Origin: Bradymonadia bacterium
GTDB lineage: Bacteria; Myxococcota_A; Bradymonadia; UBA7976; UBA1532
Direction of reading: 5' to 3'
Length of the DNA stretch: 64,000 nt
NCBI GenBank assembly: GCA_046290225.1
Contig: JBKAGE010000038.1
Location: 224,001-288,000 of the forward strand
Position numbers and translations under genes: made by a program. The notes under the pieces are model-generated. The model worked only from the letters and a program-made list of their open reading frames with translations, made no database searches and was not told the DNA's origin. Positions 24,013 through 64,000 of this stretch are shown piece after piece; position 1 is the first letter of the stretch, and the number at the start of each line of letters is the position of its first letter.

Positions 24013-24831
24013 GTGGATCAGATGCTCAACGCCGCCTTCCTCGGCTTGATCCAAGCCCTCACAGAGTTCCTGCCGGTCTCCTCGAGCGGACACCTCGTCC
24101 TGGGCAAGGTGATCCTCGGCATGGAGCTCGATGGCGGCGCCGCCACTGAGGTGGCCATGCACTTCGGCACCCTCATGAGCGTGATCGTGTTGTTCTTCAA
24201 GGACATCATTCGCCTGTTCAAGGCTACGGCGCGCCTCATGGGCAATCTGGGCCGGGTACGCTACCTCTGGCACGAAGATCCCGACATCAGACTGCTGGTG
24301 GCCATCATCATCGGCTGTATTCCCGCTGGAGTGATTGGGCTGCTGTTCAAAGATCAGCTCGAGAGCGCCTTCAATGATCCCCGAGGGGTCTGCGTGGCGC
24401 TGTTGTGCACAGGTGGTTTGTTGCTCACCACGGTGATGGCCCCCGTGGGCAAAGAGTCGATCCGCCCCCTCGACGCGCTGATCATCGGTGTGGCTCAGGC
24501 TGTGGCCATCATCCCCGGCATCTCCCGCTCAGGCTCGACGATCTCCGTGGCCCAGTTTCTGGGGATAGAGCGCGTGGATGCGGCCCGCTTCAGCTTCTTG
24601 ATGAGCTTGCCGGTCATCGCAGGGGCCACCTTGCTCAAGGGCAAGGACATGCTGGCCAACCCGCCCCCTGCAGATACGCTCGCTGCCCTCGGCGTCGGCG
24701 CGGCGGTCTCTTTCGTGGTGGGCCTCGGGGCGTTGTGGGCCCTGATGCAGCTGGTGCGCCAGGGCAAGTTCTCCATCTTCGGCTGGTACTGCCTCACCCT
24801 CGGTGTGGTGGGCTTGATCATGCTGCAGTAG
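24013..24831 (+). CDS. uppP: undecaprenyl-diphosphatase
   Basis: LGLIQALTEFLPVSSSGHL, HFGT, PGISRSGSTI, AARFSFLMSLP. Confidence 0.97.
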   Translation: MDQMLNAAFLGLIQALTEFLPVSSSGHLVLGKVILGMELDGGAATEVAMHFGTLMSVIVLFFKDIIRLFKATARLMGNLGRVRYLWHEDPDIRLLVAIIIGCIPAGVIGLLFKDQLESAFNDPRGVCVALLCTGGLLLTTVMAPVGKESIRPLDALIIGVAQAVAIIPGISRSGSTISVAQFLGIERVDAARFSFLMSLPVIAGATLLKGKDMLANPPPADTLAALGVGAAVSFVVGLGALWALMQLVRQGKFSIFGWYCLTLGVVGLIMLQ

Positions 24832-25200
24832 AGCGGACGGCCGTGCCTTTGGCACCGCCTGTAGCGGACGGCCGTGCTGCGCACCGCCTGTAGCGGACGC
24901 CGAGTCTGCCTTCGGCAGCCTGAGCTGTAGCTTTTTTAGAGAGTTATGGTGTGCTTGGTGGGCTTCTCGACCCAGGTTGGGGCTTACGCCGGAACTGGTA
25001 CGTCAACAGCCACTGCACTGCGCGGTAGATGAGCCCACGCCCCCAAAGTGATCTTCAAAAAGCTACAGGGAATTTGCCGTAGGCAAATGAGCGTCCGCTA
25101 CAGCTCTCGCCGAAGGCGAGGCGTCCGCTACAGACGCAGCGCAGCGAAAGCTTTTGCTGGGTCGTCCGCTACAGGCGGCCCGAAGGGCGGCCGTCCGCTC
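24829..25200. repeat. symmetric inverted-repeat ladder (REP/MITE-like) of CTGTAGCGGACG motifs separated by triloop hairpins
   Basis: Left arm: GAGCGGACG, 2x CTGTAGCGGACG, CTGTAGCTTTTT. Right arm: AAAAAGCTACAG, 3x CGTCCGCTACAG, CGTCCGCTC. Confidence 0.9.
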
Positions 25201-29151: not shown

Positions 29152-30222
29152 ATGGTCGAGCCTGAGATGATCGAGATCAACGGAGCCGAGGGTGAAGGCG
29201 GAGGCCAGATCATTCGCACGGCGCTGAGCCTTTCGCTGCTCACCGGGCGCCCCTTCACCATCGAGCAGGTGCGGGGCGGGCGCCGCAAACCCGGGCTGCT
29301 GCGACAACACCTCACCGCAGTCCGCGCCGCTGCCCGCATCGGCGCCGCCGAGGTGGAGGGTGATCACCTCGGGAGCGATCGGCTGGTGTTCCGACCCCAG
29401 GGGCTCGTTGCCGGGCACTACGATCTGGCCATCGGCAGCGCCGGCAGCGCCAACCTCGTGGTGCAGACCCTGCTCCCTGCCCTGCTCAACGCGGATCAGC
29501 CCTCTCACGTGTCGGTCTCCGGAGGCACTCACAACCCGGCCTCTCCGAGCTTCGACTACCTCGACCAGGTGTTCTTGCCTGTGGTGGAGCGGATGGGCGC
29601 TCAGGTGAAACGCACGATGCACGCCCCGGGCTTCTTCCCTGCTGGGGGCGGCCGGATCAGCTTCGACATCACCCCGGTGCCGCTGTCGCCCATCACCCTC
29701 GACACCCGACCCGAAGACATCACGTGGCACGCCCAGGTGCTCATCGCTCACCTGCCTGCCCACGTGGCCGAGCGCGAGGTGAGCCAGCTCGCCGAGGGCA
29801 TGAGCCTGCGGCCCGAGGCCGTGCAGGTGGTCAACCTCGACGCGCAGTCCGCCGGGCCGGGCAACGCGGTGATCCTCACCGCCAGGGCCGGCGACGTGGT
29901 GGAGCAGTTCACCGGCTTCGGGCGCAAGGGCGTCAAGGCCGAGGTGGTCGTCGACGAGGTGGTGGCCGAGGCCCGGGCGTGGCTCGGCAGCGGCGCACCC
30001 GTGGGGCCTCACCTCGCCGATCAGCTCATCTTGCCCATGGCCCTCGCAGGTGGAGGGCGGTTCGTCACCCAGGCCCCCCAGCAGCACACCCTCACCCAGG
30101 TGAAGACTGTGGGCCGGTTCCTCGACATCGCCATCGACCTGCAGCACAACGACGACGAGACGGCCGGGCGCACCTGGACCCTCACCGTCGGCGACGGTCG
30201 CGCTCTCGGAGATGCCTCTTGA
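29152..30222 (+). CDS. rtcA: RNA 3'-terminal phosphate cyclase
   Basis: GEGGGQIIRTALSLS, RRKPGLLRQHLTAV, GGTHNP, GFFPAGGG, HLADQLILPMALAG. Confidence 0.97.
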   Translation: MVEPEMIEINGAEGEGGGQIIRTALSLSLLTGRPFTIEQVRGGRRKPGLLRQHLTAVRAAARIGAAEVEGDHLGSDRLVFRPQGLVAGHYDLAIGSAGSANLVVQTLLPALLNADQPSHVSVSGGTHNPASPSFDYLDQVFLPVVERMGAQVKRTMHAPGFFPAGGGRISFDITPVPLSPITLDTRPEDITWHAQVLIAHLPAHVAEREVSQLAEGMSLRPEAVQVVNLDAQSAGPGNAVILTARAGDVVEQFTGFGRKGVKAEVVVDEVVAEARAWLGSGAPVGPHLADQLILPMALAGGGRFVTQAPQQHTLTQVKTVGRFLDIAIDLQHNDDETAGRTWTLTVGDGRALGDAS

Positions 30223-30785
30223 GCACATCGGGCCCAGCGGGGATCCGCGCCACGGCGACGTGGCGTCTGCCCCCGGACAGCAGCCGCGCAGTGCGGCGCA
30301 CCCTGGCCTTCGTGCTGCCTCAGATTCCGCTGTGTCTGCTGGGGTGGTGGCTCTTCGAGCGCACAGATCTGCGACTGATGTGGGTCTGCCTGATCTTCTT
30401 CGTCTGGTGGGGCATCTGGATCCGCATCTTCCTTACGGGGCGCAGCTTCCCCATGGTCTTCGATGGTCGCGCGCTGCTCGTGTACGATCCTCGGGGCAAG
30501 CGCACGTGGCCTCTCGCCGAAGATGCGTCTGTACCGATCCGTAGCGAGCTCGTGGGCACTCGACGACCTGTGGGCAGGGGCGGGCACCAGGTGCCCATGC
30601 AACAGCTGATGTTGCAGGCCATCGACGGCGAGCCGGTCCGACTCCTGCGCACAGTGCCTGAGGAAGATCTCGAAGGATTGACACTGGTCCCCTGGTCCGA
30701 CGACGCCGCCCTCGAAGTCTGGAACGGTGACGGGGCGCTCTTCGACGCTCTGTGCGCACAATCACATCTGAAATCATCCGTGTGA
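30219..30785 (+). CDS. hypothetical membrane protein (2 TM) coupled to rtcA
   Basis: TTG start overlapping the rtcA stop; two hydrophobic segments. Confidence 0.6.
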   Translation: MSTSGPAGIRATATWRLPPDSSRAVRRTLAFVLPQIPLCLLGWWLFERTDLRLMWVCLIFFVWWGIWIRIFLTGRSFPMVFDGRALLVYDPRGKRTWPLAEDASVPIRSELVGTRRPVGRGGHQVPMQQLMLQAIDGEPVRLLRTVPEEDLEGLTLVPWSDDAALEVWNGDGALFDALCAQSHLKSSV

Positions 30786-30920
30786 TTCCGGGCGGTCGCC
30801 ACATCGCCCTTGACGGGCCAACCTCTGACGGGCTACCGAACACACACACCAGTGCTCACATCAACGATGGCGTCTGATTAAGCGATCCGCCATCGCGCTC
30901 TTGTAAGGAAGGCGAAGACC

Positions 30921-31361
30921 ATGGGTTTGCTCTCCCGCTTGACCAAAGGGGTGACCCCTCAAAAGAAGGTCACCGACGACGTCCTGCTCCTCCACTCCAT
31001 GCTCCTGATGGCCGGCGCCGACGGGGTGTTCGACGACGAGGAGATCGACGCGGTGCGCGGGTACTTCGGCACCCTCCCCGAGTTCAAGGACAAGTCTTTC
31101 GAGGAGCTCTACCAGGCTTCTTTGAAGCTCTTGAAGCGCTACAACAACCTCGCTGAGTCCGTCGCCTCTCTCGGCGATCTGTCGACCCAGAACATGAAGG
31201 ACAAGTGCTTCCTCATCGCCGTCGACATCGCCATGTCGACAGGTGACGTGGACGAGACCGAGGACGCCATGCTCGAGTCGATGCAGCGCGTGCTTCAGGT
31301 GGACGACGGCACCGCCACCAAGATCATCGAGGTCATGAACATCAAGTACGCCAAGGCCTGA
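30921..31361 (+). CDS. TerB family (tellurite-resistance-like) protein
   Basis: MAGADGVFDDEE and IAMSTGDVDETEDAML match the paired ADG...E TerB motifs; strong RBS AAGGAAGG. Confidence 0.85.
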   Translation: MGLLSRLTKGVTPQKKVTDDVLLLHSMLLMAGADGVFDDEEIDAVRGYFGTLPEFKDKSFEELYQASLKLLKRYNNLAESVASLGDLSTQNMKDKCFLIAVDIAMSTGDVDETEDAMLESMQRVLQVDDGTATKIIEVMNIKYAKA

Positions 31362-31495
31362 TTCAGGTCTTCGCGACTCAGGCCAGCATGTGCACGACCG
31401 TGCATGTGCTGGTCCACCTCACGCCCCTTCCTCGGCGCGCTGCCTCTACAGTCTAGATTGCAGCGTTCAGGCCGCCCTTCATTCAGGAGACAGTC

Positions 31496-32749
31496 ATGTT
31501 GATTGACCCACGCACCATTCAGGTCCGGCGTGAGGCGGCCATGCGCCAGCAGCTCGCCGACAACTACGGCATCCGCAAGGGCCTCGAGTTCCTCAAGCAT
31601 CACCGGAACGGCCGGGGCTACGGCTACCGCCGCAGCCTGCTCACCCGAGCCCTGCGCCTCACCCGTGACATGGCACCGGAGATCGCCGACATCATCACGG
31701 AGTGCAAGCGCATCATCGGTTACGAGCGGCCCATCGAGGTCTTCGTCACTCCGGAGAACCACTTCAACGCCAGCTGTCAGCGTGAGCCAGGGCATGGCCC
31801 CACCATCCTCACGCTGTCGAGTCGGCTGCTCGAGGCCTTCACTGTGCCCGAGCTGCGCTTCGTCATCGGTCACGAGCTCGGCCACGCCAGCTTCGACCAC
31901 TACGAGCTGCCCATGCCCATCATCGCCACCCTCACCGATCGGGTGGGCGTCAAGTTCGTCGACCGCCACACCAGCATCGATCTCTACGCGTGGTGTCGTG
32001 CGGCAGAGCTCTCTGCCGATCGCGTGGGTCTCATCTGCGCAGGTGATCCCGAGGCGGCGGCCTCAGGCTTCTTCAAGCTCGCCAGCGGCATCGCCAGCGA
32101 CAAGCTCAAGCCCGATCTCGCCGCCTTCGCCCGTCAGGTGGAGAGCCTCGCCTCGGCCCCTGAGGCCCGGCAGAAGCCTCGCCCCGACGACGACACCCTC
32201 GACTGCTTCAGCACGCACCCCTACAACCCGGTTCGGGTCCGGGCGGTGTGGGCCTTCAGCCGCTCGAAGCCCTACCTCGATTATGTGGGCCGTTCGAGCC
32301 ACGATGCCCTGTCGATGGAGCAGGTCGAATCGATCATCGAGCGCGATCTCACCCTGATGGATCCGATCTACCTACAAGAGAAAGGCGACGACGCCGACGC
32401 CCTGCGCCGCTTGCTGTTCACTGCAGGCATCCTCGTGGCCGACGCCTATCAAGGGGTGACGCAGAGCGAGCTCGAGGCCCTGGGCCTACTTCTCGGTGAG
32501 GAGTACGCATCGGCCCCGGATGACATCGAGCTGGCCCGCAAGAACTTCCCCGGCCGCCTCGAGGCGGTGAAGGGGCTGCCCCTGGCGAACAAGGCCGCCC
32601 TGATCCAGCACCTGACCATCATCGCCGCAGCTGACGGCGTGGTACAGGAGGAAGAGCTCCGGGTCATGGAGGATGTCGCCCATCAGCTCGAGGTCGATAT
32701 TCGCATCATTCACGATACGCTTCGGGGATCGATGCACCCCCTCGATTAG
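31496..32749 (+). CDS. M48 (HtpX/Ste24-like) zinc metallopeptidase fused to a C-terminal TerB-like domain
   Basis: FNA, ELRFVIGHELGH, AELSADR, STHP; C-terminal IAAADGVVQEEE. Confidence 0.88.
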   Translation: MLIDPRTIQVRREAAMRQQLADNYGIRKGLEFLKHHRNGRGYGYRRSLLTRALRLTRDMAPEIADIITECKRIIGYERPIEVFVTPENHFNASCQREPGHGPTILTLSSRLLEAFTVPELRFVIGHELGHASFDHYELPMPIIATLTDRVGVKFVDRHTSIDLYAWCRAAELSADRVGLICAGDPEAAASGFFKLASGIASDKLKPDLAAFARQVESLASAPEARQKPRPDDDTLDCFSTHPYNPVRVRAVWAFSRSKPYLDYVGRSSHDALSMEQVESIIERDLTLMDPIYLQEKGDDADALRRLLFTAGILVADAYQGVTQSELEALGLLLGEEYASAPDDIELARKNFPGRLEAVKGLPLANKAALIQHLTIIAAADGVVQEEELRVMEDVAHQLEVDIRIIHDTLRGSMHPLD

Positions 32750-33160
32750 AGAGAGTTTCGGGCACGGGCACGGGCACGGGCACGGGCACGAGTTGATTCG
32801 GCTGTGGACAGTGCAGCCTGAGGCTGCATGTCTTGGAGCGAGTGTAGGCCTGCGTAGCCGGCCGGAGGGAGCGGAAAGACACCCGGAGGGCTGTCCACTG
32901 GTCAACCTGACCCGTAACCCTACATGACTCCGCTCGTGGGTGTGTGATGGTGGAGGCTCTACTCAGCCCCATGTGTCTCTCATTGGAGGCTTTGTCCTCC
33001 ATACACCCCAAGACTTGAAACCTCAGGTCGTTCTGAAGCGCACCATCTCAGCCTCAATGACAACCATCGCCCTGAACCCAGGATGGGTCACGGGTCCACA
33101 CCCGAATCAACTCGTGCCCGTGCCCGTGCCCGTGCCCGTGCCCGAAACTCTCTTTTCCAG
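32747..33160 (+). mobile_element. non-coding (GGGCAC)n inverted-repeat element, copy 1 (MITE-like or structured RNA)
   Basis: 60-bp inverted arms at 32750-32809 and 33094-33153 (one mismatch), each with five hexamers; core homologous to 62710-63018. Confidence 0.8.
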
Positions 33161-33290
33161 ACTGATCAGAAAGCGTTCACTTAAAGATCGGAACGCCCTT
33201 TGCTTATTCACCTCAGCAGGGTGTCAGAAAAGTGAACGTGCCCCACGGGACACCCTGACGAGACATCTGGCAATGAGAGGTGGTCTGATC

Positions 33291-33647
33291 ATGATTGAGT
33301 CTGCAGTGTTGACGATGTGCCCCGACCGTCATCGGTTTGTTCCTCCCCACGCAGAGGTGGAGGAATGGGTCGATCTCTCCCGTCGGGTCAGCCTGCGCCG
33401 CATCTTGCGCGCCCTGGTGATCCAGCACATCGACCACCCAGGTGAGACTCTCTCCTTTGATCAGCTCGTGAGCGTAGGCTGGCCCGGTGAGCGCATCATC
33501 CTCCGCGCCGCCCGCAACCGTCTGCACGTGGCTTTGAGCACCCTGCGTCGCTTTGGTGTGCAGATCGAGTTCCACGAGAGCGGCTGGCGACTGCCCCCTC
33601 ACATCAAGGTGACCTGGGCCGAGGAGGCCACCGAAGCTGCAGCCTGA
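33291..33647 (+). CDS. stand-alone winged-helix (OmpR/SARP-like) DNA-binding domain protein
   Basis: LRRILRALV...PGETLSFDQLVSVGWPGE...ARNRLHVALSTLRRFG; RBS GAGGTGG. Confidence 0.7.
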   Translation: MIESAVLTMCPDRHRFVPPHAEVEEWVDLSRRVSLRRILRALVIQHIDHPGETLSFDQLVSVGWPGERIILRAARNRLHVALSTLRRFGVQIEFHESGWRLPPHIKVTWAEEATEAAA

Positions 33648-33694
33648 GGCTCAGCATGTGTGCTCGCTCGACTCCGTGTTTGAGTGCACTTGAC

Positions 33695-35032
33695 CTATAA
33701 GTCGACCCGCGTCCAGCCATCTCCCCGCCAGAGGGTGGCAAAGACGCCGGCCTGTATCAGCCGGTACCCGAGCTGTACCGCCCAGATGGCCAACAGCCCC
33801 CACTGCAAGGTCGGGCCCACCAGATAGACCATGGGCAAGGCCAGCCCCCACTGCAATCCGATCGACCAGATCATGACCCGACGGCTGTCTCCCGCACCGA
33901 GCAGCGCGTTCTGAAACACCATGCCCATGGCGTCGAGGCCGATGGTGAGCCCCATCAAGCGCAGAGGCCATGCTGCGAGCACCTGAAGGTGGGGCTCTTT
34001 CAAGAACGCCGACAAGATCAGCTCGGGCATGATGATGGCGGGCAAGGCGATGAGCGACACCGCGATGGCGGCGAGCTTGGCTACGTCCTGCCCCCACATC
34101 CGTGCCCCTGATGCATCTTTCTGGCCGAGTGACTGGCCCACCAGCGAGGCCGCGGAGATGCCAAAGCCCAGCCCTGGCAGGATCGCCACCAACAGCAAAT
34201 CGGTGAGCACCTTGGTGGTGGCCAACTCGTCGATGCCCACCTTTTCTACCATCGTGTAGAAAGTGGTCATGCCCGCAGCGAAGAAGAATTGCTGCAGCCC
34301 TGCGGGCCCTGCAGTCCTCAAGATGGTGGCCAACGTGGCCCGGCTCGGCAGACCTCTGAGGAACCCACCCTCTCGGGCGTGCTGCCAGCCCAGATAGCAG
34401 TAGTACACCGTGCCGAGGAACAGCGAGGCCGAGGTGCCGATGCCTGCGCCTGCGACCCCCATAGCCGGCAAGCCCAGATGACCGAAGATGAGCACATAGC
34501 TGATGATGATGTTGGCGATGTGCATGTAGATGAGGGTGCGCATGTAGAGCCGCGACAAGTCGACGGCGTTCCAATACCCTCGGAAGGCGAAGTTGGCCCC
34601 CACGGCCACCATGGCCACCACACGGGCTCTGAAATACACCACGGCGTCGCCGATGAGCGCCTGATCGTCCGCGAGCAGATCGAACAGCTCGGGGGCCAGG
34701 GCATAAGCGACAATGCTGGCAGGCACGGCGATGATGCCCACGAGCACGAGGCCACCGTTGAGCGGGATGGCGGTCTCGTCGTGGCGCCCCTCCCCTTTTC
34801 GCCGTGCGGACATGGCCTGCACGCCCACCGACATCCCAGTGATGAACGCCACGCACATGAAGTTGGCGAAGCTTGCCAGCCCCACAGCAGCGAGGGCGGT
34901 CTTGCCGAGGGTGCCCACCATGGCGGCGTCCACCAGGTTGAGCACGTTCTGGGAGAACATGCCTCCGATGATGGGCAGGGCGAGGGTGAGAATGCGTCGA
35001 CGACGCTCGGCGGTCAGCATGGGGCGCACCAT
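33695..35032 (-). CDS. MATE family efflux transporter
   Basis: ILTLALPII...[13 protein letters not shown], two-fold TM repeat, ALLGAGDSR. Confidence 0.94.
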
Positions 35033-35075
35033 ATCAGCAATGGGCCCCCTCTGCCTGTTGTTCACACTCCGCCGT

Positions 35076-35960
35076 TCAACACCGCCGGATGGCCACCAAT
35101 GCGTCTTTTCGCACCTTGGCGCAGGTGGCGGGGGTGAGCGTGAGCGGGATGGCGTCTTCGATTTCAGCAGGGCAGCCTTCGGCGCCCTGTGATGCCGCTG
35201 GAGATGGTGCGGGTGCAGAAAGAGCCTCAAGCCAGGGCTTTTCGTCGATGAGGCGCTCGAGATCATCCACCCCGAAACGAGGGCTTCGGACCCGCATCAG
35301 TTCGAAGACCATGCGCTGAAACGTCAGCTGATCGGCCTCGCTCGCGGCCCACATCAGATGTGCGAGGGAGCGAGATCGGATCAACGGCCCTGGCGTGAGG
35401 CCGCTGGCCTTCGCATCGAGCATGTGCATCAAGGTCGACCCCTGAGCAGGAGGCGCATCGGCGTTCTGCCATGCCTCCACCACCGCCTCGAGCAAGGTCA
35501 CGGGACACACTTCGGCCACGAACCCCTGAGGCCAGCCACCCTCGGGTCCTGTGAAGGCCCAATCTACGTCGCCCTCGGCGAAACGGGCCACCACCTGGTC
35601 CACGGTGTCACCATCCATGAGGGGACAGCCACCAGGAATGCGCACCACTGTCGTGGCACTCACAGCCCGTGCCGCATCCAGAAGCCGCTCGAGAGACGAG
35701 GACGCGTTGCTCCGATGGCACGAGACCCCGGCAACGGCACACCAGTCGGCGATGCCGTCGTCGTAGAGCTGATCTGAAGTCGAGACCCATACCGCCCTGA
35801 TCCGCCGTGCTCGACGCACCCTTTCGACAGTATGAGCCAGCAGGGTGCGCTCGGCGATGCGACTCAGCGTGTTCTGGCTGGCGCCAGTGCTGTCCAGGCT
35901 GACACTGATGAAGGCAACAGGCCGTTGCCGACTGTCGAAGCTCCGATATGACACATCCAT
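35076..35960 (-). CDS. SpsF/FlmC-like cytidylyltransferase family protein with degenerate motifs
   Basis: [22 protein letters not shown]...DDGI and [12 protein letters not shown] match the family, but the canonical QARMGSTRLPGK and RxTxDCP motifs are altered. Confidence 0.7.
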
Positions 35961-36090
35961 CTCCTCAGTCTCTTGAGAGTCGTCATATCAGTGGTGTTGT
36001 CTTGAGGTTTGCACGATGAGACCGGCTGAGCACGTGTGACCATTCAACAGATGTTTCACGCTGACCCAACCTTCATCCCTCGACCGGGCG

Positions 36091-36100
36091 GTGCCGATGA
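36091..36100 (+). promoter_or_regulatory. candidate sigma28 (FliA/WhiG)-type -10 element
   Basis: GTGCCGATGA lies 30 bp upstream of the PilZ gene, and the identical 10-mer precedes the YjfB-like gene. The -35 element is not clear. Confidence 0.45.
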
Positions 36101-36130
36101 TTTGATCAAGACGGACAAGTGGCCAGCTGT

Positions 36131-37360
36131 ATGCTCGACGAAACCCTCGCATCGCACGCTCAAGATCTGGAGGCCGACGCCCTCCACGGTCGAAGGAGCT
36201 CGGAGGATGATGGTTTCGAGCGACGCGAGGGCATGACCATCAGCGATCCGATGGCCATGGCCCGCCACCTTGCGGGCCTGCCCAAGCCCCTCCCAATTCG
36301 CATTCTGAGAGAGCCGGACTGGCAGGCGATCCGCGGCCTGGTCCGCATCGACCGCCGCGTCGATCTCTCTGTTCTGCTCAAGCGTTTGCGCTATGCAGTG
36401 AACGAAGGCGCTGTGGACGAGAGCTGGGTGGGCACTTCGGTGATCATCTCCTACAACGCGCAGGGCAAGCCCTGGTCATATCGCTCGGTGGTCAGGAGCC
36501 TTCAGAGAGGGGGCTTCGTTGCAGACGCCCCCATCGAGCTTCGACAAGGGCAGCTCGCTCTCCCGGGCAACTCCTGGTTGTCACTGCCTGGAGACGAGCT
36601 CGCGGATCCACGGTTTACCCGCCTGCCCATCAAAACGGTGCACGATCTGCCCACGCGTATGGCCTTCATGAGCATGATCGGCGGTGACCTGCAACTCCGC
36701 AGTGGCCGCTGCTCGGAGATCAACCACCCCAAACGTGTGGGAGAGATCATCGAGCGCCTCATCATGAGCCCCTCGATGCTCCTGACAACTTCAGGGGATC
36801 ACGGGGCCTGTGAAGCTGTCCTGGAAGCCACTCAACCTGGGGTACCGGTGCTGATGTTGCGGTGCAACCACCGCGGCATGCTCCCGGTGCGCCGAGGTCG
36901 GGTGGTCTTCCTCACCGGCATGCTCGGTCGCGAGCAGTTCACCTTAAAGACTGTGGTGCTCAAGGTCGATGGGGAACGCCTCGCGCTCCGACGGCCCAAA
37001 GAGGTCTTCCGACTCCAACGGCGGAAGAAGGTGCGCTACGAGCTGCGCCACCAGTCTTTTACCGTCTCGCTCTGGGACGGGATGAACATGAACGCCGTCG
37101 AAGGTGTGGTGGACCTCTCCGAAGAAGGGATCGGGGTGCTCATCAACCCCGACTCCACCACCCGCGTCGGTGACGTCTACAAGCTGGTGCTCTCCATGGG
37201 CAAGAAGCAGACGATGGGCGTCACCGGCATCTGCGTCTCGTGCGGAGAGTCGGGCTGGCATTACCGTCGATGCGGCTTCGAATTCGTCGACATCGACGAC
37301 CGCTCGCGTCGTGTGATCCAGCACTGGCTCGACAAATTCGGCCGCCCTGTCGGGCGATAG
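36131..37360 (+). CDS. PilZ-domain c-di-GMP-binding protein (YcgR flagellar brake-like C-terminus)
   Basis: PKEVFRLQRRKKVR (RxxxR), DLSEEG (DxSxxG), CGFEF. Confidence 0.85.
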   Translation: MLDETLASHAQDLEADALHGRRSSEDDGFERREGMTISDPMAMARHLAGLPKPLPIRILREPDWQAIRGLVRIDRRVDLSVLLKRLRYAVNEGAVDESWVGTSVIISYNAQGKPWSYRSVVRSLQRGGFVADAPIELRQGQLALPGNSWLSLPGDELADPRFTRLPIKTVHDLPTRMAFMSMIGGDLQLRSGRCSEINHPKRVGEIIERLIMSPSMLLTTSGDHGACEAVLEATQPGVPVLMLRCNHRGMLPVRRGRVVFLTGMLGREQFTLKTVVLKVDGERLALRRPKEVFRLQRRKKVRYELRHQSFTVSLWDGMNMNAVEGVVDLSEEGIGVLINPDSTTRVGDVYKLVLSMGKKQTMGVTGICVSCGESGWHYRRCGFEFVDIDDRSRRVIQHWLDKFGRPVGR

Positions 37361-37452
37361 TCGAACTCACCAGAGCAGGCGTTCAACACTTCCCCACGCC
37401 CATGCTTTCAACGACGTGTACCTGATCTACAGTGTGATTTGAGCGGATGGAT

Positions 37453-37902
37453 CTAGGTGTGAACGCCTGCCTCGACGATGAGGCTGCCCGCTTCGCCATC
37501 GAAGGGCACACAGATCCGTCGGGCGGTCTGTCGCAGTGAAGGCACGGTGATGTCCCACCCCACGACCCCTCGGGGCATCTCGACGTCCACGGTGCCGGGG
37601 TCGAGGTGCTCGACGGCCTTTTTGGCAATGCTCTGTGCCAACTCGGCGAGGGCAGCGAGACGCTCACCCGGCGCGGCGTCGCTGTTGCCCACGAGGGCGT
37701 CGGCCATCATCGCCGGAGTACTCACCATGAATTCCAGAGGACGAGCACCCTCCTGCTTCAGGGTGACGAGCACGTTGTACTCGTAAGGGGTGAGGGCCGC
37801 TTCTCGAGAGAAGGGTCGCCCGGGCCTGCTGCCGGACTCCATGCGCTCAGCGAGGATCGCCCCCGTGCTCGACAGCAGCTTGTTGATCAGGTGAGCATCC
37901 AT
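37453..37902 (-). CDS. CheX-like chemotaxis protein
   Basis: MDAHLINKLLSST, ALAELAQSIA (ExxN changed to ExxQ), MPRGVVG, VPF...GSLIVE; TGATG coupling to the upstream gene. Confidence 0.55.
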   Translation of the reverse strand: MDAHLINKLLSSTGAILAERMESGSRPGRPFSREAALTPYEYNVLVTLKQEGARPLEFMVSTPAMMADALVGNSDAAPGERLAALAELAQSIAKKAVEHLDPGTVDVEMPRGVVGWDITVPSLRQTARRICVPFDGEAGSLIVEAGVHT

Positions 37903-61016: not shown

Positions 61017-61688
61017 TCACCCGAAGTCTCGAGCCAACCCACGAATTTTGTGCTGCCAGTTGTAGACCACCTGTGTGTTTACCCCGAGGGCCTTCGCGGC
61101 ATCTGCCGGTGAGCACCCATCGACGTAGAGCGCTCTCAGAACGAGACGACCACGCTCGGGCAGTTGGGCGTCCAGATGGGCGAAGAGTGCCTTAGCTTCA
61201 GAGCGAGCAGCCACCTGACGCTCTGGATCTACCTGCTCGTCGGCGATTTGGCCCATGACCTCGGGGTTCACCGCCTTCTGGTCCCCTCCGCGCTTTTGAG
61301 CCAGGCGTTTGCGCAAGATGCTCACCACCGTGCGCTCGGTCACCACCCCAACATAGCCCTCAAAGCTGGCCCCACGATCAGGCTCGAAGGCCATCAGGCG
61401 CTTCCCGCTCTCTTCGAGCAAAGCCAGCCAGACCTCCTGGGCATACTCGTCTCTCACGTCAGAGGCTACAGGTCGACGCCAATGACGCCGTAGGGTGTAA
61501 CCCACCTGCGCCCGAACCACCGGCAACAGACGGCGGACCAGGCGGCGCATGGCCAGGGTGTTGCCCGAGAGGGCATCCCGCACCAGCGCAGCGTCGGCTT
61601 CGGGGTCTGAGGTTTGGCGTTCGTCGCGGCCTGCAGCCCCCACTGCCGCGGCGAACAACCCCAATATCCAGGAGAAGATGAGGGTCAT
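61017..61688 (-). CDS. ECF-type RNA polymerase sigma factor
   Basis: Region 2 (DEYAQEVWLALL...FEPDRGASFEGY) and region 4 (LPERGRLVLRALYVDG...AAKALG...VYNW). Confidence 0.9.
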   Translation of the reverse strand: MTLIFSWILGLFAAAVGAAGRDERQTSDPEADAALVRDALSGNTLAMRRLVRRLLPVVRAQVGYTLRRHWRRPVASDVRDEYAQEVWLALLEESGKRLMAFEPDRGASFEGYVGVVTERTVVSILRKRLAQKRGGDQKAVNPEVMGQIADEQVDPERQVAARSEAKALFAHLDAQLPERGRLVLRALYVDGCSPADAAKALGVNTQVVYNWQHKIRGLARDFG

Positions 61689-62593
61689 CAGGGCGGCTGC
61701 TCTCCTCGATAGGTGACGGGGATCTCGATCCAGCGCAGGGCGCTGTTCTCTCGGGCATTTTTGGCGGTGGTGCCTGCGAGCCCCTCGAGGCCCTTCGCTT
61801 CTTTGGCCAGGGCGACATACACGAAGCGCTTGCCGGTGCGCGTACCGAAGATCGCACCGGCTTTGGCCTTGAGCAAGAAGGCGCCCTTGCGCTCCTTGAT
61901 CTCGGTGGTGACGGCCTTCAGGCCCTCAGGGGTGTCAACAAAGACCTGCAGCGCGGGTGCCTTCCCGTCTGGGGCTTGCTCGGGCTTCAGGGTGATACGG
62001 ATCTCGCTCACAGCGTCGAAGATGCGCTTGGCGTGGGGGTCCTCCTCGCCACGGATCTCTTGAATCATGCCCTGAACGGCGGCGACCTGGTAAGGCGAAG
62101 GCGGGGGCAGGCTGTCGGGGCGCATCAGCACCAGCACCAGGGCAGCAGCGGCGGCGATCACCCCGCTCCCGGCCCACGTGGTCCACCTTTTGGGAAACGG
62201 CACCACATTGCTGGGGCCCTCCTTGATGTTGGACGCTTCGCTGGAAGAAACAGCCTTTGCGATTCCGGCGCCTTCACCTTCGAGGAGGGTGTCGGAGTTG
62301 ACCTGTTTCTCGATCTCGCCCACGGCCCACTGCTCCATGTCGCCAAGGGGCGCATCGAGGTCGTAGAGCATGGCTCTGGCGGCAGGATCTTCGACGAGCG
62401 CCTGCTCCACCTCGGCGGCCTCTTCGTCGCTGAGCGTGCCAGCCCGTAGAGCGAGGATGGTCTCGAGGGGTACCCCCTCGCCCTCTGGCTCAGCCGCTTC
62501 TTCATCTGGTGACGATGGCAAGTCTTCGAGCACGCCACCGAGGGCCCGGAGTCGGGCGTCGAGGGCTTCGTCGTTGGGTGTGTGCTCGGTCAT
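61688..62593 (-). CDS. putative membrane-anchored anti-sigma factor
   Basis: GTLSDEEAAEVEQAL (ZAS-like, without Cys/His), NVVPFP, one TM segment, extracytoplasmic domain; TGATG coupling to the sigma gene. Confidence 0.75.
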   Translation of the reverse strand: MTEHTPNDEALDARLRALGGVLEDLPSSPDEEAAEPEGEGVPLETILALRAGTLSDEEAAEVEQALVEDPAARAMLYDLDAPLGDMEQWAVGEIEKQVNSDTLLEGEGAGIAKAVSSSEASNIKEGPSNVVPFPKRWTTWAGSGVIAAAAALVLVLMRPDSLPPPSPYQVAAVQGMIQEIRGEEDPHAKRIFDAVSEIRITLKPEQAPDGKAPALQVFVDTPEGLKAVTTEIKERKGAFLLKAKAGAIFGTRTGKRFVYVALAKEAKGLEGLAGTTAKNARENSALRWIEIPVTYRGEQPP

Positions 62594-62709: not shown

Positions 62710-63018
62710 TTGGTAAGAGAGAGTTTGTCGGGCACGGGCACGGGCACGGGCACGAGTTGATACATATTCTGACCCGTGGCCCTTCCTGAACTCAGGGCGA
62801 AGGTTACAACTGAAGCTGAGATGATGTGTTGTTGAACGACCTGAGAGTTCAGGTCTTGGGGTGTATGGAGGCCAAAAGTCGCACTGAGCAAAGCGTGGGG
62901 CTGGATGAAGGCTCCACCATCACAAACCCATGAGCGGAGTCATATAGGACAACGGGTCCAGATATGTATCAACTCGTGCCCGTGCCCGTGCCCGTGCCCG
63001 TGCCCGAAAAACTCTCTA
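62710..63018 (-). mobile_element. non-coding (GGGCAC)n inverted-repeat element, copy 2
   Basis: Arms with 4 and 5 hexamers plus GAGTTGATACATAT/ATATGTATCAACTC; core homologous to 32747-33160 in reverse orientation. Confidence 0.8.
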
Positions 63019-63999
63019 TTTAAGCTGCATTGCCGAGGTATCCACAGCCCACGCCTTACCGAACTGAGTAATGGTGGCCACGAGCTGGGCTTTCTCGATG
63101 TTCACGATGCCCTTGGGCACCGCGAGATACTTGAAGAAGGCGCTGTCACCGGGGCGATAACCCTGACCATTGCTGGGCACAGCCAGGGGGAGGTAGGCCT
63201 GCTTGCCGTATTTGTCGGTGAGGAGCAGGTAAGGGCTGGTGAAGCGGGTGGTGGCGATGTCGTACTTGCTGCTGAAGTTGATGCTCACATTGAGGTAGGG
63301 GAAGAGGTTGAGTACGGCGCAATCTGGACAGAGGGGCACTCGAGGCTGCGGGCCCACAGCACCAAGCGCATCACGACGCAGTCGGTCAGGCGGCTCACCC
63401 ACAATCTGTGCAGGGCCAAAGCGCACATCATCATTGTTGGTGCAGTCCGTCCAGTCTACGCATGCATCATCACTCGTACCTGGCGCGTTGGCGGTGCACT
63501 GAGGTGCCGGCTCGGCCCCCTCCGGATCATACCCTGGCGGATTCCCGGGGAACGCATCACACACCTCCAGCCACTCCGCACATCGATCGATGACATCAGG
63601 GCCTTGGCCTTGAGCCAGGCACCCAATGGCGGAGAGCAGCTCCCCACACTGCACCAGGTCATCAGCCGCCCCGACATTGAGAGCCCGCACTGGATATCCC
63701 TGCCATGTTGAACGGTTGAGGTCATATGCGGTCAGGTAGAGCAGATCGCTCAGCTGGGCCCCACTCAACCGGGGTACTAGAGGGTCTGCGCTCCGCGCAG
63801 CGCCCAGATATGCCAACGCCCGTGCGAGGGCGCCCGTGGTCAGGGCAGCAGACACCGAAGTGCCCGTGTATGCTTCTGGGGCACCCGCGAGCGCACCTTG
63901 GGGTGTGAACACGTGCGCCCCTGGTGCGACGAGGCGGGGCTCTGCCAAGGCTCGGGGGATCGACACACCTGTCGGGGTGCCACGGGCATTGATCGCGCC
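63016..63999 (-). CDS. 5'-truncated S8 (subtilisin-like) serine peptidase, C-terminal part
   Basis: Frame is open to the window edge: GAINARG...PRLVAPG...YTGTSVSAALTTGALA (catalytic Ser motif), followed by a Cys-rich tail. Confidence 0.8.
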   Translation of the reverse strand, partial: GAINARGTPTGVSIPRALAEPRLVAPGAHVFTPQGALAGAPEAYTGTSVSAALTTGALARALAYLGAARSADPLVPRLSGAQLSDLLYLTAYDLNRSTWQGYPVRALNVGAADDLVQCGELLSAIGCLAQGQGPDVIDRCAEWLEVCDAFPGNPPGYDPEGAEPAPQCTANAPGTSDDACVDWTDCTNNDDVRFGPAQIVGEPPDRLRRDALGAVGPQPRVPLCPDCAVLNLFPYLNVSINFSSKYDIATTRFTSPYLLLTDKYGKQAYLPLAVPSNGQGYRPGDSAFFKYLAVPKGIVNIEKAQLVATITQFGKAWAVDTSAMQLK

Positions 64000-64000
64000 G

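Follow-up and report, generated by a model that had tools for sequence, protein, structure and literature searches.

The two GGGCAC arrays that follow the TAG stop codons of an M48 peptidase-TerB gene and an S8 peptidase gene in the stretch of DNA analyzed here (64,000 nt, hereafter the window; positions 224001–288000 of contig C38 of the source genome, G000) are, on balance, probably the termini of a fold-back repeat, dispersed and gene-less, which clusters close to the 3′ ends of genes and in five cases overlaps a TAG stop through its own AG. On the same reading, the repeat likely represents a non-coding version of a cassette carrying a gene for a four-helix-bundle protein, and it likely lands and survives where it breaks neither a gene nor a promoter.

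Both junctions reported in the initial annotation were confirmed. The M48-TerB gene (31496–32749, plus strand; Pfam M48 and TerB) ends in GAT-TAG, with its stop at 32747–32749, and is followed after a 10-nt spacer, AGAGAGTTTC, by (GGGCAC)5 (32747–32789 from stop to array end). The S8 gene, whose 3′ part occupies 63016–64000 on the minus strand (Pfam S8; 731 aa, start beyond the window), ends in AAA-TAG (63018–63016), and reading the minus strand from 63018 its stop is followed by the 10-nt spacer AGAGTTTTTC and (GGGCAC)5. GGGCAC arrays in the window far exceed chance (11 matches vs. a mean of 0.02 in shuffles). One arm of each copy lies at a stop codon; its inverted partner points toward the start of a gene. 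Copy 1 (32748–33153) is bounded on either side by a short (AG)n end and has a near-perfect terminal inverted repeat of ~58 bp; the AG of the M48 TAG can double as the element’s first AG. Its left array, (GGGCAC)5 at 32760–32789 on the plus strand, begins 10 nt past the M48 stop, while its right array, (GGGCAC)5 at 33114–33143 on the minus strand, has a gene start 213 nt away and no stop codon. An optional module of ~100 bp (32807–32906, approximate limits) is present in copy 1 and absent in copy 2; other elements carry 0–3 copies of it per arm, and the contig of a related copy skips 32797–32907. In copy 2 (62716–63017), likewise with short ends on both sides, the inverted arms flank a ~190-nt core. 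The left array has only four hexamers (62730–62753, plus strand) and faces, at 136 nt, the start of a gene without a Pfam match (61688–62593, minus strand); the right array has five (62976–63005, minus strand), 10 nt past the S8 stop. Copy 2 is predicted to form a single long stem beginning within the S8 stop codon (−160 kcal/mol, z −13.9), and no intrinsic terminator was found in it. The same side of the core lies toward the gene at the M48-TerB and S8 sites. An empty site was sought at copy 1, where contigs from three sequencing runs, each with a small share of matches, covered only fragments of window positions 29500–37500 and none spans either junction.

A pattern search of G000 gave 139 hits, of which four inside genes were judged false and dropped. 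The remaining 135 arm ends form 40 intact pairs and leave 55 without a partner, many of the latter broken by contig ends or by an insertion sequence (IS). Each end consists of an optional CGCT-type motif followed by (AG)n-T(3–5)-C-(GGGCAC)4–5-GAGT around the ~190-nt core, and the outer ends are not fixed, ranging from 8 to over 40 nt. Core identity between copies averages 0.74 and reaches at most 0.94, no two copies being identical, and the arms of one element resemble each other more than shuffled pairs do (0/1000). Direct repeats at the outer limits of the 40 pairs were at shuffle level for 5–8-mers, the range covered by the test. Terminal inverted repeats without coding capacity are the form of the element, as in MITEs, the exception being one pair that contains the four-helix-bundle gene. 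That gene and a DDE transposase IS (PF01609) inserted in the core of one copy (L195:262–1470, on C50) are the only genes found between arms, and no autonomous IS shares the element’s ends. The exact arm was present in two of 41 genomes including G000, at one other locus in a GTDB scan (with a different repeat mix), and at none in a metagenome scan. No description of the family or of family-specific stop spectra was found in the open-access literature.

Placement relative to genes is strongly biased. Using gene calls made for this analysis with a self-trained hexamer model (6238 genes, 88% coding), 133 of the 135 ends face protein-coding genes, 78 of them toward the 3′ end and 55 toward the start, with 2 toward nothing; 78/133 compares with 35–38% expected (p < 2e-6). 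Intact elements lie in convergent, tandem, and divergent gaps in 17, 18, and 3 cases (n = 38), vs. 6.6, 57, and 36.5% per base. The outer end overlaps or touches the stop at 12/78 (strict definition) or 23/78 (loose) 3′-facing ends, vs. 1.1% expected, and lies within 15 nt of it at 41/78 (strict) or 45/78 (loose), vs. 15% expected. Among short ends toward a 3′ end, 13/18 are ≤4 nt from the stop, five of them as T+AG. Much of this proximity is due to the choice of short, 3′-rich gaps. Given each gap’s own size, flush positions (≤1 nt) were still in excess (8/34 vs. 3.3–3.7 expected, p 0.002–0.006), the excess being weaker at thresholds of 3–6 nt (p 0.013–0.08). The genome-wide tabulation upholds the suggestion that the elements hug stop codons insofar as placement is non-random and TAG is enriched, but a fixed rule is absent. 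TAG plus 10 nt occurs at just 4/135 arm ends, stop-to-first-hexamer distances running from 7 to 289 nt (≤16 nt in 14 ends), and the fixed orientation to transcription proposed from the two window sites did not hold (10 vs. 6, p = 0.45), the split among flush ends in intact pairs being 6 vs. 1. One copy between convergent genes (C37:145566–145849) is flush with both stops, TAG and TGA, at 8 nt each.

Stop codons facing the 78 ends are 51 TGA, 22 TAG, and 5 TAA, in a genome whose 6238 called genes use TGA in 80%, TAG in 11%, and TAA in 9%. With one 3′-facing end left out of the TAG and skew tests because it lies over 160 nt away (n = 77), TAG is about two-fold enriched: 22/77 vs. 11.1 expected once the bases on either side of the stop are matched (p = 4e-4), and the expectation for gaps over 150 nt is 13.6% (p = 5e-4). 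Two confounders were ruled out, namely gene GC (8.0 expected when matched for GC3 vs. 22 seen) and avoidance of CTAG or YTA (10.4–11.1 expected vs. 22). Over the whole genome, CTAG stands at 0.16 of expectation, and TAG ends 3–5% of genes after C or T and 21–24% after G or A. Five of the TAGs have their AG in common with the terminal AG of the arm. If the first AG of an end completes the TAG, the modal spacing is 10 nt (39/112 ends); the “exactly 10 nt” and “same phase” of the initial annotation follow from end length once the arm’s AG plays this role. Removal of the five overlaps leaves 17/72 vs. 9.8 expected (p = 0.01), so the excess is not fully explained by them. The proposal that the element targets or supplies TAG stops is in keeping with the proximity to stops and the roughly two-fold TAG excess, but there is no TAG-specific rule, TGA being the stop at 51/78 ends.

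C-terminal ends of the host proteins appear unchanged. For M48-TerB, the end residue is the same in 9/9 readable relatives, all ending in TGA (nine of ten loci used, L035 being unreadable), and in 24/25 readable metagenome loci (6/31 ran off their contig), where TGA, TAG, and TAA occur 20, 4, and 1 times; these metagenome homologues are 46–65% identical and none has the element at its stop. The S8 C-terminus lies within one residue of those of two full-length homologues (2/9 non-self loci used), and PmbA, Lpd, and the epimerase also match their homologues, while the VWA (8/9 non-self loci used), Aldedh, and GluRS tails are of variable length with no clear truncation. Creation of the TAGs as premature stops, from TAC or CAG by loss of C, was ruled out for the seven of the 22 TAG genes that were checked, whose ends match homologues. 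In homologues, a comparison put forward in the initial annotation, the stops are near background, with TAG in 5/32 (seven TAG genes, 44–70% identity), a tally that leaves out the Lpd hits (48–49%), which may be paralogues. Since no empty site was found and distant homologues are near background, these data do not separate supply of a TAG from landing on an existing one. A link to proteases finds no support: among the 14 genes closest to an arm (≤16 nt), two encode a protease; the other 12 encode VWA, ECF sigma, symporter, CydB, KptA, DUF1552, Lpd, MMPL, and ABC-2 proteins and three unknowns.

Three further repeat families in this genome, B, C, and D, also hug stop codons, and each of the four has a TAG excess beside it (22/77 for the GGGCAC family; 50/209 for the other three pooled vs. 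19.4 expected). The stop spectrum differs with the family: flush stops are TGA, TAG, and TAA in 10, 6, and 2 cases for the GGGCAC family, 37, 11, and 0 for B, and 4, 16, and 11 for C (p = 1.7e-7). In family B the stop goes with register, TGA falling at one offset in 29/29 and TAG at two neighboring offsets in 8/8, and a TGA stands at the repeat’s end in 20 of 51 ends without a gene stop; here the repeat supplies the stop. A family B repeat also follows a TAG stop in the window (24013–24910; C38:248013), with 29-bp tandem units at 24832–24909. Families B and D carry TGTAG, and GGGCAC-family ends are without a GTAG/CGTC tag. If any family truly targets stops, the best candidate is family C, a polar repeat (e.g., C21:12690, C80:103541, C38:159725). 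It lies ≤8 nt from a stop in 43/46 cases, its stops are TAG in 20, TAA in 17–18, and TGA in 9, and CTAG occurs at 15/47 of them although CTAG is so scarce in this genome. Proteins of its host genes end in Phe in 13/43 cases vs. 4.7% genome-wide. The coding strand beside family C gains C. Codon bias is stronger in the host genes of this family, and this may be a separate cause of more TAA.

Neighboring genes carry a strand-specific base skew. Over the final 20 codons of genes facing GGGCAC arms, C, G, T, and A at fourfold sites stand at 0.17, 0.55, 0.22, and 0.06, vs. 0.45, 0.32, 0.13, and 0.10. The skew fades over ~300 nt and is mirrored in genes whose starts face an arm, which ties it to the DNA strand and not to the mRNA. 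The two window genes have almost none beyond 60 nt. In the relative G019, with genes called on the fetched stretches only, 35 arrays in 32 stretches (L163–L194) read outward, C is gained in the genes that they face, and the stop is TAA in 5/18 vs. 1/166 (p = 3e-5). GGGCAC arrays in G019 are mixed with GGTCAA, GGGCAA, and CTCGAC arrays, and on its 3′ side the strand reading GGGCAC is rich in G and T. TAA tracks the skew from family to family, at 5/77, 2/99, and 6/61 where the coding strand gains G and 18/47 where it gains C. Loss of C was no different in TAG and TGA genes (0.353 vs. 0.325, p = 0.64). A gain of G is by itself unable to convert TGA to TAG, and strand drift therefore explains the fall in TAA better than the rise in TAG. 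Flushness is uncorrelated with skew (rho −0.13, p = 0.30), and slow erosion with age finds no support, as flushness does not rise with skew. Break-and-resection as the cause of the skew is disfavored, since in G019, despite the reversed geometry, it is still the strand reading GGGCAC that the skew follows.

The pair that encloses a gene, one of the 40 intact pairs and neither of the window copies, encodes a 117-aa four-helix-bundle protein (TIGR02436, 71 bits; PF05635, 77 bits) with a solved relative in the PDB, 2GSC. Homologues occur in 13/113 genomes of the class including G000, and at 21/23 non-self loci inverted repeats flank the gene, mostly as arrays of other hexamers (of the 21 outer limits, two seem spurious). 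The genome’s second PF05635 gene (L103, C77:107013–107851) lies between the inverted arms of another repeat family, of the GTAGGCAG type. A search for a mover gave no Y1 (RAYT) transposase match with PF01797, which matched 6/14 controls, in the 99%-complete assembly, in which multi-copy elements may be unassembled, and no assembled gene for an IS110 transposase (PF02371). The only two reverse transcriptases in the genome, with RVT_1 matches, are adjacent and tail to tail (L105/L106, C79:178718–180977), and no link to the repeats was seen; they are presumably retron-like. An unassembled IS occurs only inside GGGCAC arrays (14/14 left and 10/10 right ends; 24 contig ends, e.g., C7, C8, C13, C4, C5, C29). 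Near its ends, at 7 and 3 nt, it has short subterminal inverted repeats, which we take to suggest the IS1111 group of IS110. An IS110 element is reportedly found in REPs.

Several known systems share features with the GGGCAC family. REP/BIME/REPIN-RAYT systems are likewise high-copy extragenic palindromes in inverted pairs that favor convergent and tandem gaps (PMC3733652, PMC2817692), and in GTAG REPs the ends frequently supply the neighboring gene’s TAG stop (PMC3733652). As with REPs, GGGCAC termini overlap stops, the copies are extragenic near 3′ ends, and a dedicated IS targets the repeats. Unlike REPs, GGGCAC ends have neither the GTAG/CGTC tag nor a local hairpin of 20–40 bp, the arms being hexamer arrays that pair over 220–330 nt; moreover, the genome has no Y1 transposase, the enclosed gene encodes a four-helix bundle, and the stops are mostly TGA. 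Intervening sequences of 23S rRNA that bear an ORF (S23p/PF05635/TIGR02436), as described in PMC4990558, resemble the single gene-bearing copy here in having a PF05635 gene in the loop of long terminal inverted repeats, but GGGCAC copies lie between protein genes and not in rRNA, and nearly all are without an ORF. MITEs such as Correia/NEMIS, RUP, and YPAL are also non-autonomous, bounded by terminal inverted repeats, able to fold back, and co-transcribed with their neighbors (PMC2229807), whereas the GGGCAC family lacks fixed ends, target duplication, identical copies, and a transposase sharing its ends.

Three other accounts of the stop-proximal arms deserve consideration. In one, machinery of the cassette, an Avd-like protein with a putative partner, would recognize stops either as DNA words (TAG or CTAG) or via terminating ribosomes or mRNA 3′ ends, and insert there. 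We consider this rather unlikely, even though differing end sequences all come to lie flush with stops, all four families have the TAG excess, family C keeps so close to stops and uses CTAG despite its scarcity, skew is slight at the two window copies, as though they had arrived recently, and PF05635 resembles the Avd protein of DGRs (PMC10053308). Against it, 55/133 ends face gene starts and 46–53 of the 78 3′-facing ends are >5 nt from the stop; CTAG accounts for just 1/22 of the GGGCAC-family TAGs; target duplication was absent among 5–8-mers in the 40 pairs; the skew follows the DNA strand, in start-facing genes too, and not the mRNA; and the reverse transcriptases sit together on C79 with no visible tie to the repeats.

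Less probable still, and in our judgment unlikely, is that the stem is a selected mRNA 3′ module that would stabilize the transcript, be cut by RNase III, or stall ribosomes at the stop. The stem of copy 2 does start inside a stop codon, and the 41–45 of 78 ends within 15 nt of a stop, about half of those facing 3′ ends, recall E. coli REPs, which stall ribosomes when within 15 nt of the stop (PMC12306157, citing an earlier study); RNase III acts on the stems of NEMIS and IVS (PMC2229807, PMC4990558). However, the GGGCAC arm has no local hairpin, unlike the E. coli REP, and its pairing partner lies 300–400 nt downstream, which must be transcribed beforehand for the stem to form. The orientation of the core is not fixed, though flush ends in intact pairs present one side in 6/7 cases, copy 2 offers no intrinsic terminator, the host genes have no common function, and the exact arm is confined to this lineage. 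Side effects of the element on mRNA are likely, yet they need not explain its presence. Programmed readthrough, in which the stem would promote UAG recoding and add an R-E/V-F-(RA)5-R-V-D tail, strikes us as highly improbable. The predicted tails are REF(RA)5RVDSAVDSAA* for M48 and RVF(RA)5RVDTYLDPLSYMTPLMGL* for S8, and the RA frame is indeed used in 5/6 TAG genes within 16 nt and in 12/22 TAG genes overall (p = 0.03). However, all three frames occur over the 78 ends (31/26/21, p = 0.14), contrary to the fixed phase first proposed; end length accounts for the RA frame at flush TAGs (39/112 ends; 4/5 observed, p = 0.05), and TAG genes without the five overlaps are spread 8/6/3. A conserved (RA)n peptide is also contradicted by homologous cassettes, whose other hexamers encode other dipeptides, by the reversed array in G019, and by the lack of the tail in homologous proteins.

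If the window sites are instead the ends of a dispersed fold-back repeat, as we favor, copies would spread by recombination or by copying through a hairpin intermediate, and not by cut-and-paste with target duplication. An element end could then reach, but not pass, a stop codon, and junctions leaving T+AG, TG+A, or TA+A would be tolerated, in which case the last letters of the arm would set the stop in flush copies. The 10-nt spacing would be just the length of an (AG)n-T(3–5)-C end, and stop codons would be reached without any need for recoding. Drift would act in addition: the strand that reads GGGCAC would lose C and A and gain G and T, shifting the stops beside arms, away from TAA in G000 and toward TAA where the geometry is reversed.

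That repeats donate a TAG to a neighboring gene is already known, and in this narrow sense the finding is ordinary. Less ordinary are the presence of four families in one genome, each with its own stop-codon spectrum, and the flip of that spectrum to TAA in G019, where the hexamer array points the opposite way, together with a strong strand-specific skew. A bolder proposal, which we hold to be possible but doubtful, is that the Avd-like four-helix-bundle cassettes, together with copies lacking the gene, make up a mobile system that has no RAYT or DDE transposase, homes to stop codons, and rewrites neighboring DNA strand-specifically over ~300 nt, each family imposing its own stop (TAG, TGA, or TAA). 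If the family-specific spectra and their flip in G019 hold, local repeat activity would be an unrecognized force on bacterial stop-codon choice, and the long-unexplained PF05635/TIGR02436 cassettes would gain testable footprints, namely the place where they land and the strand that they change.
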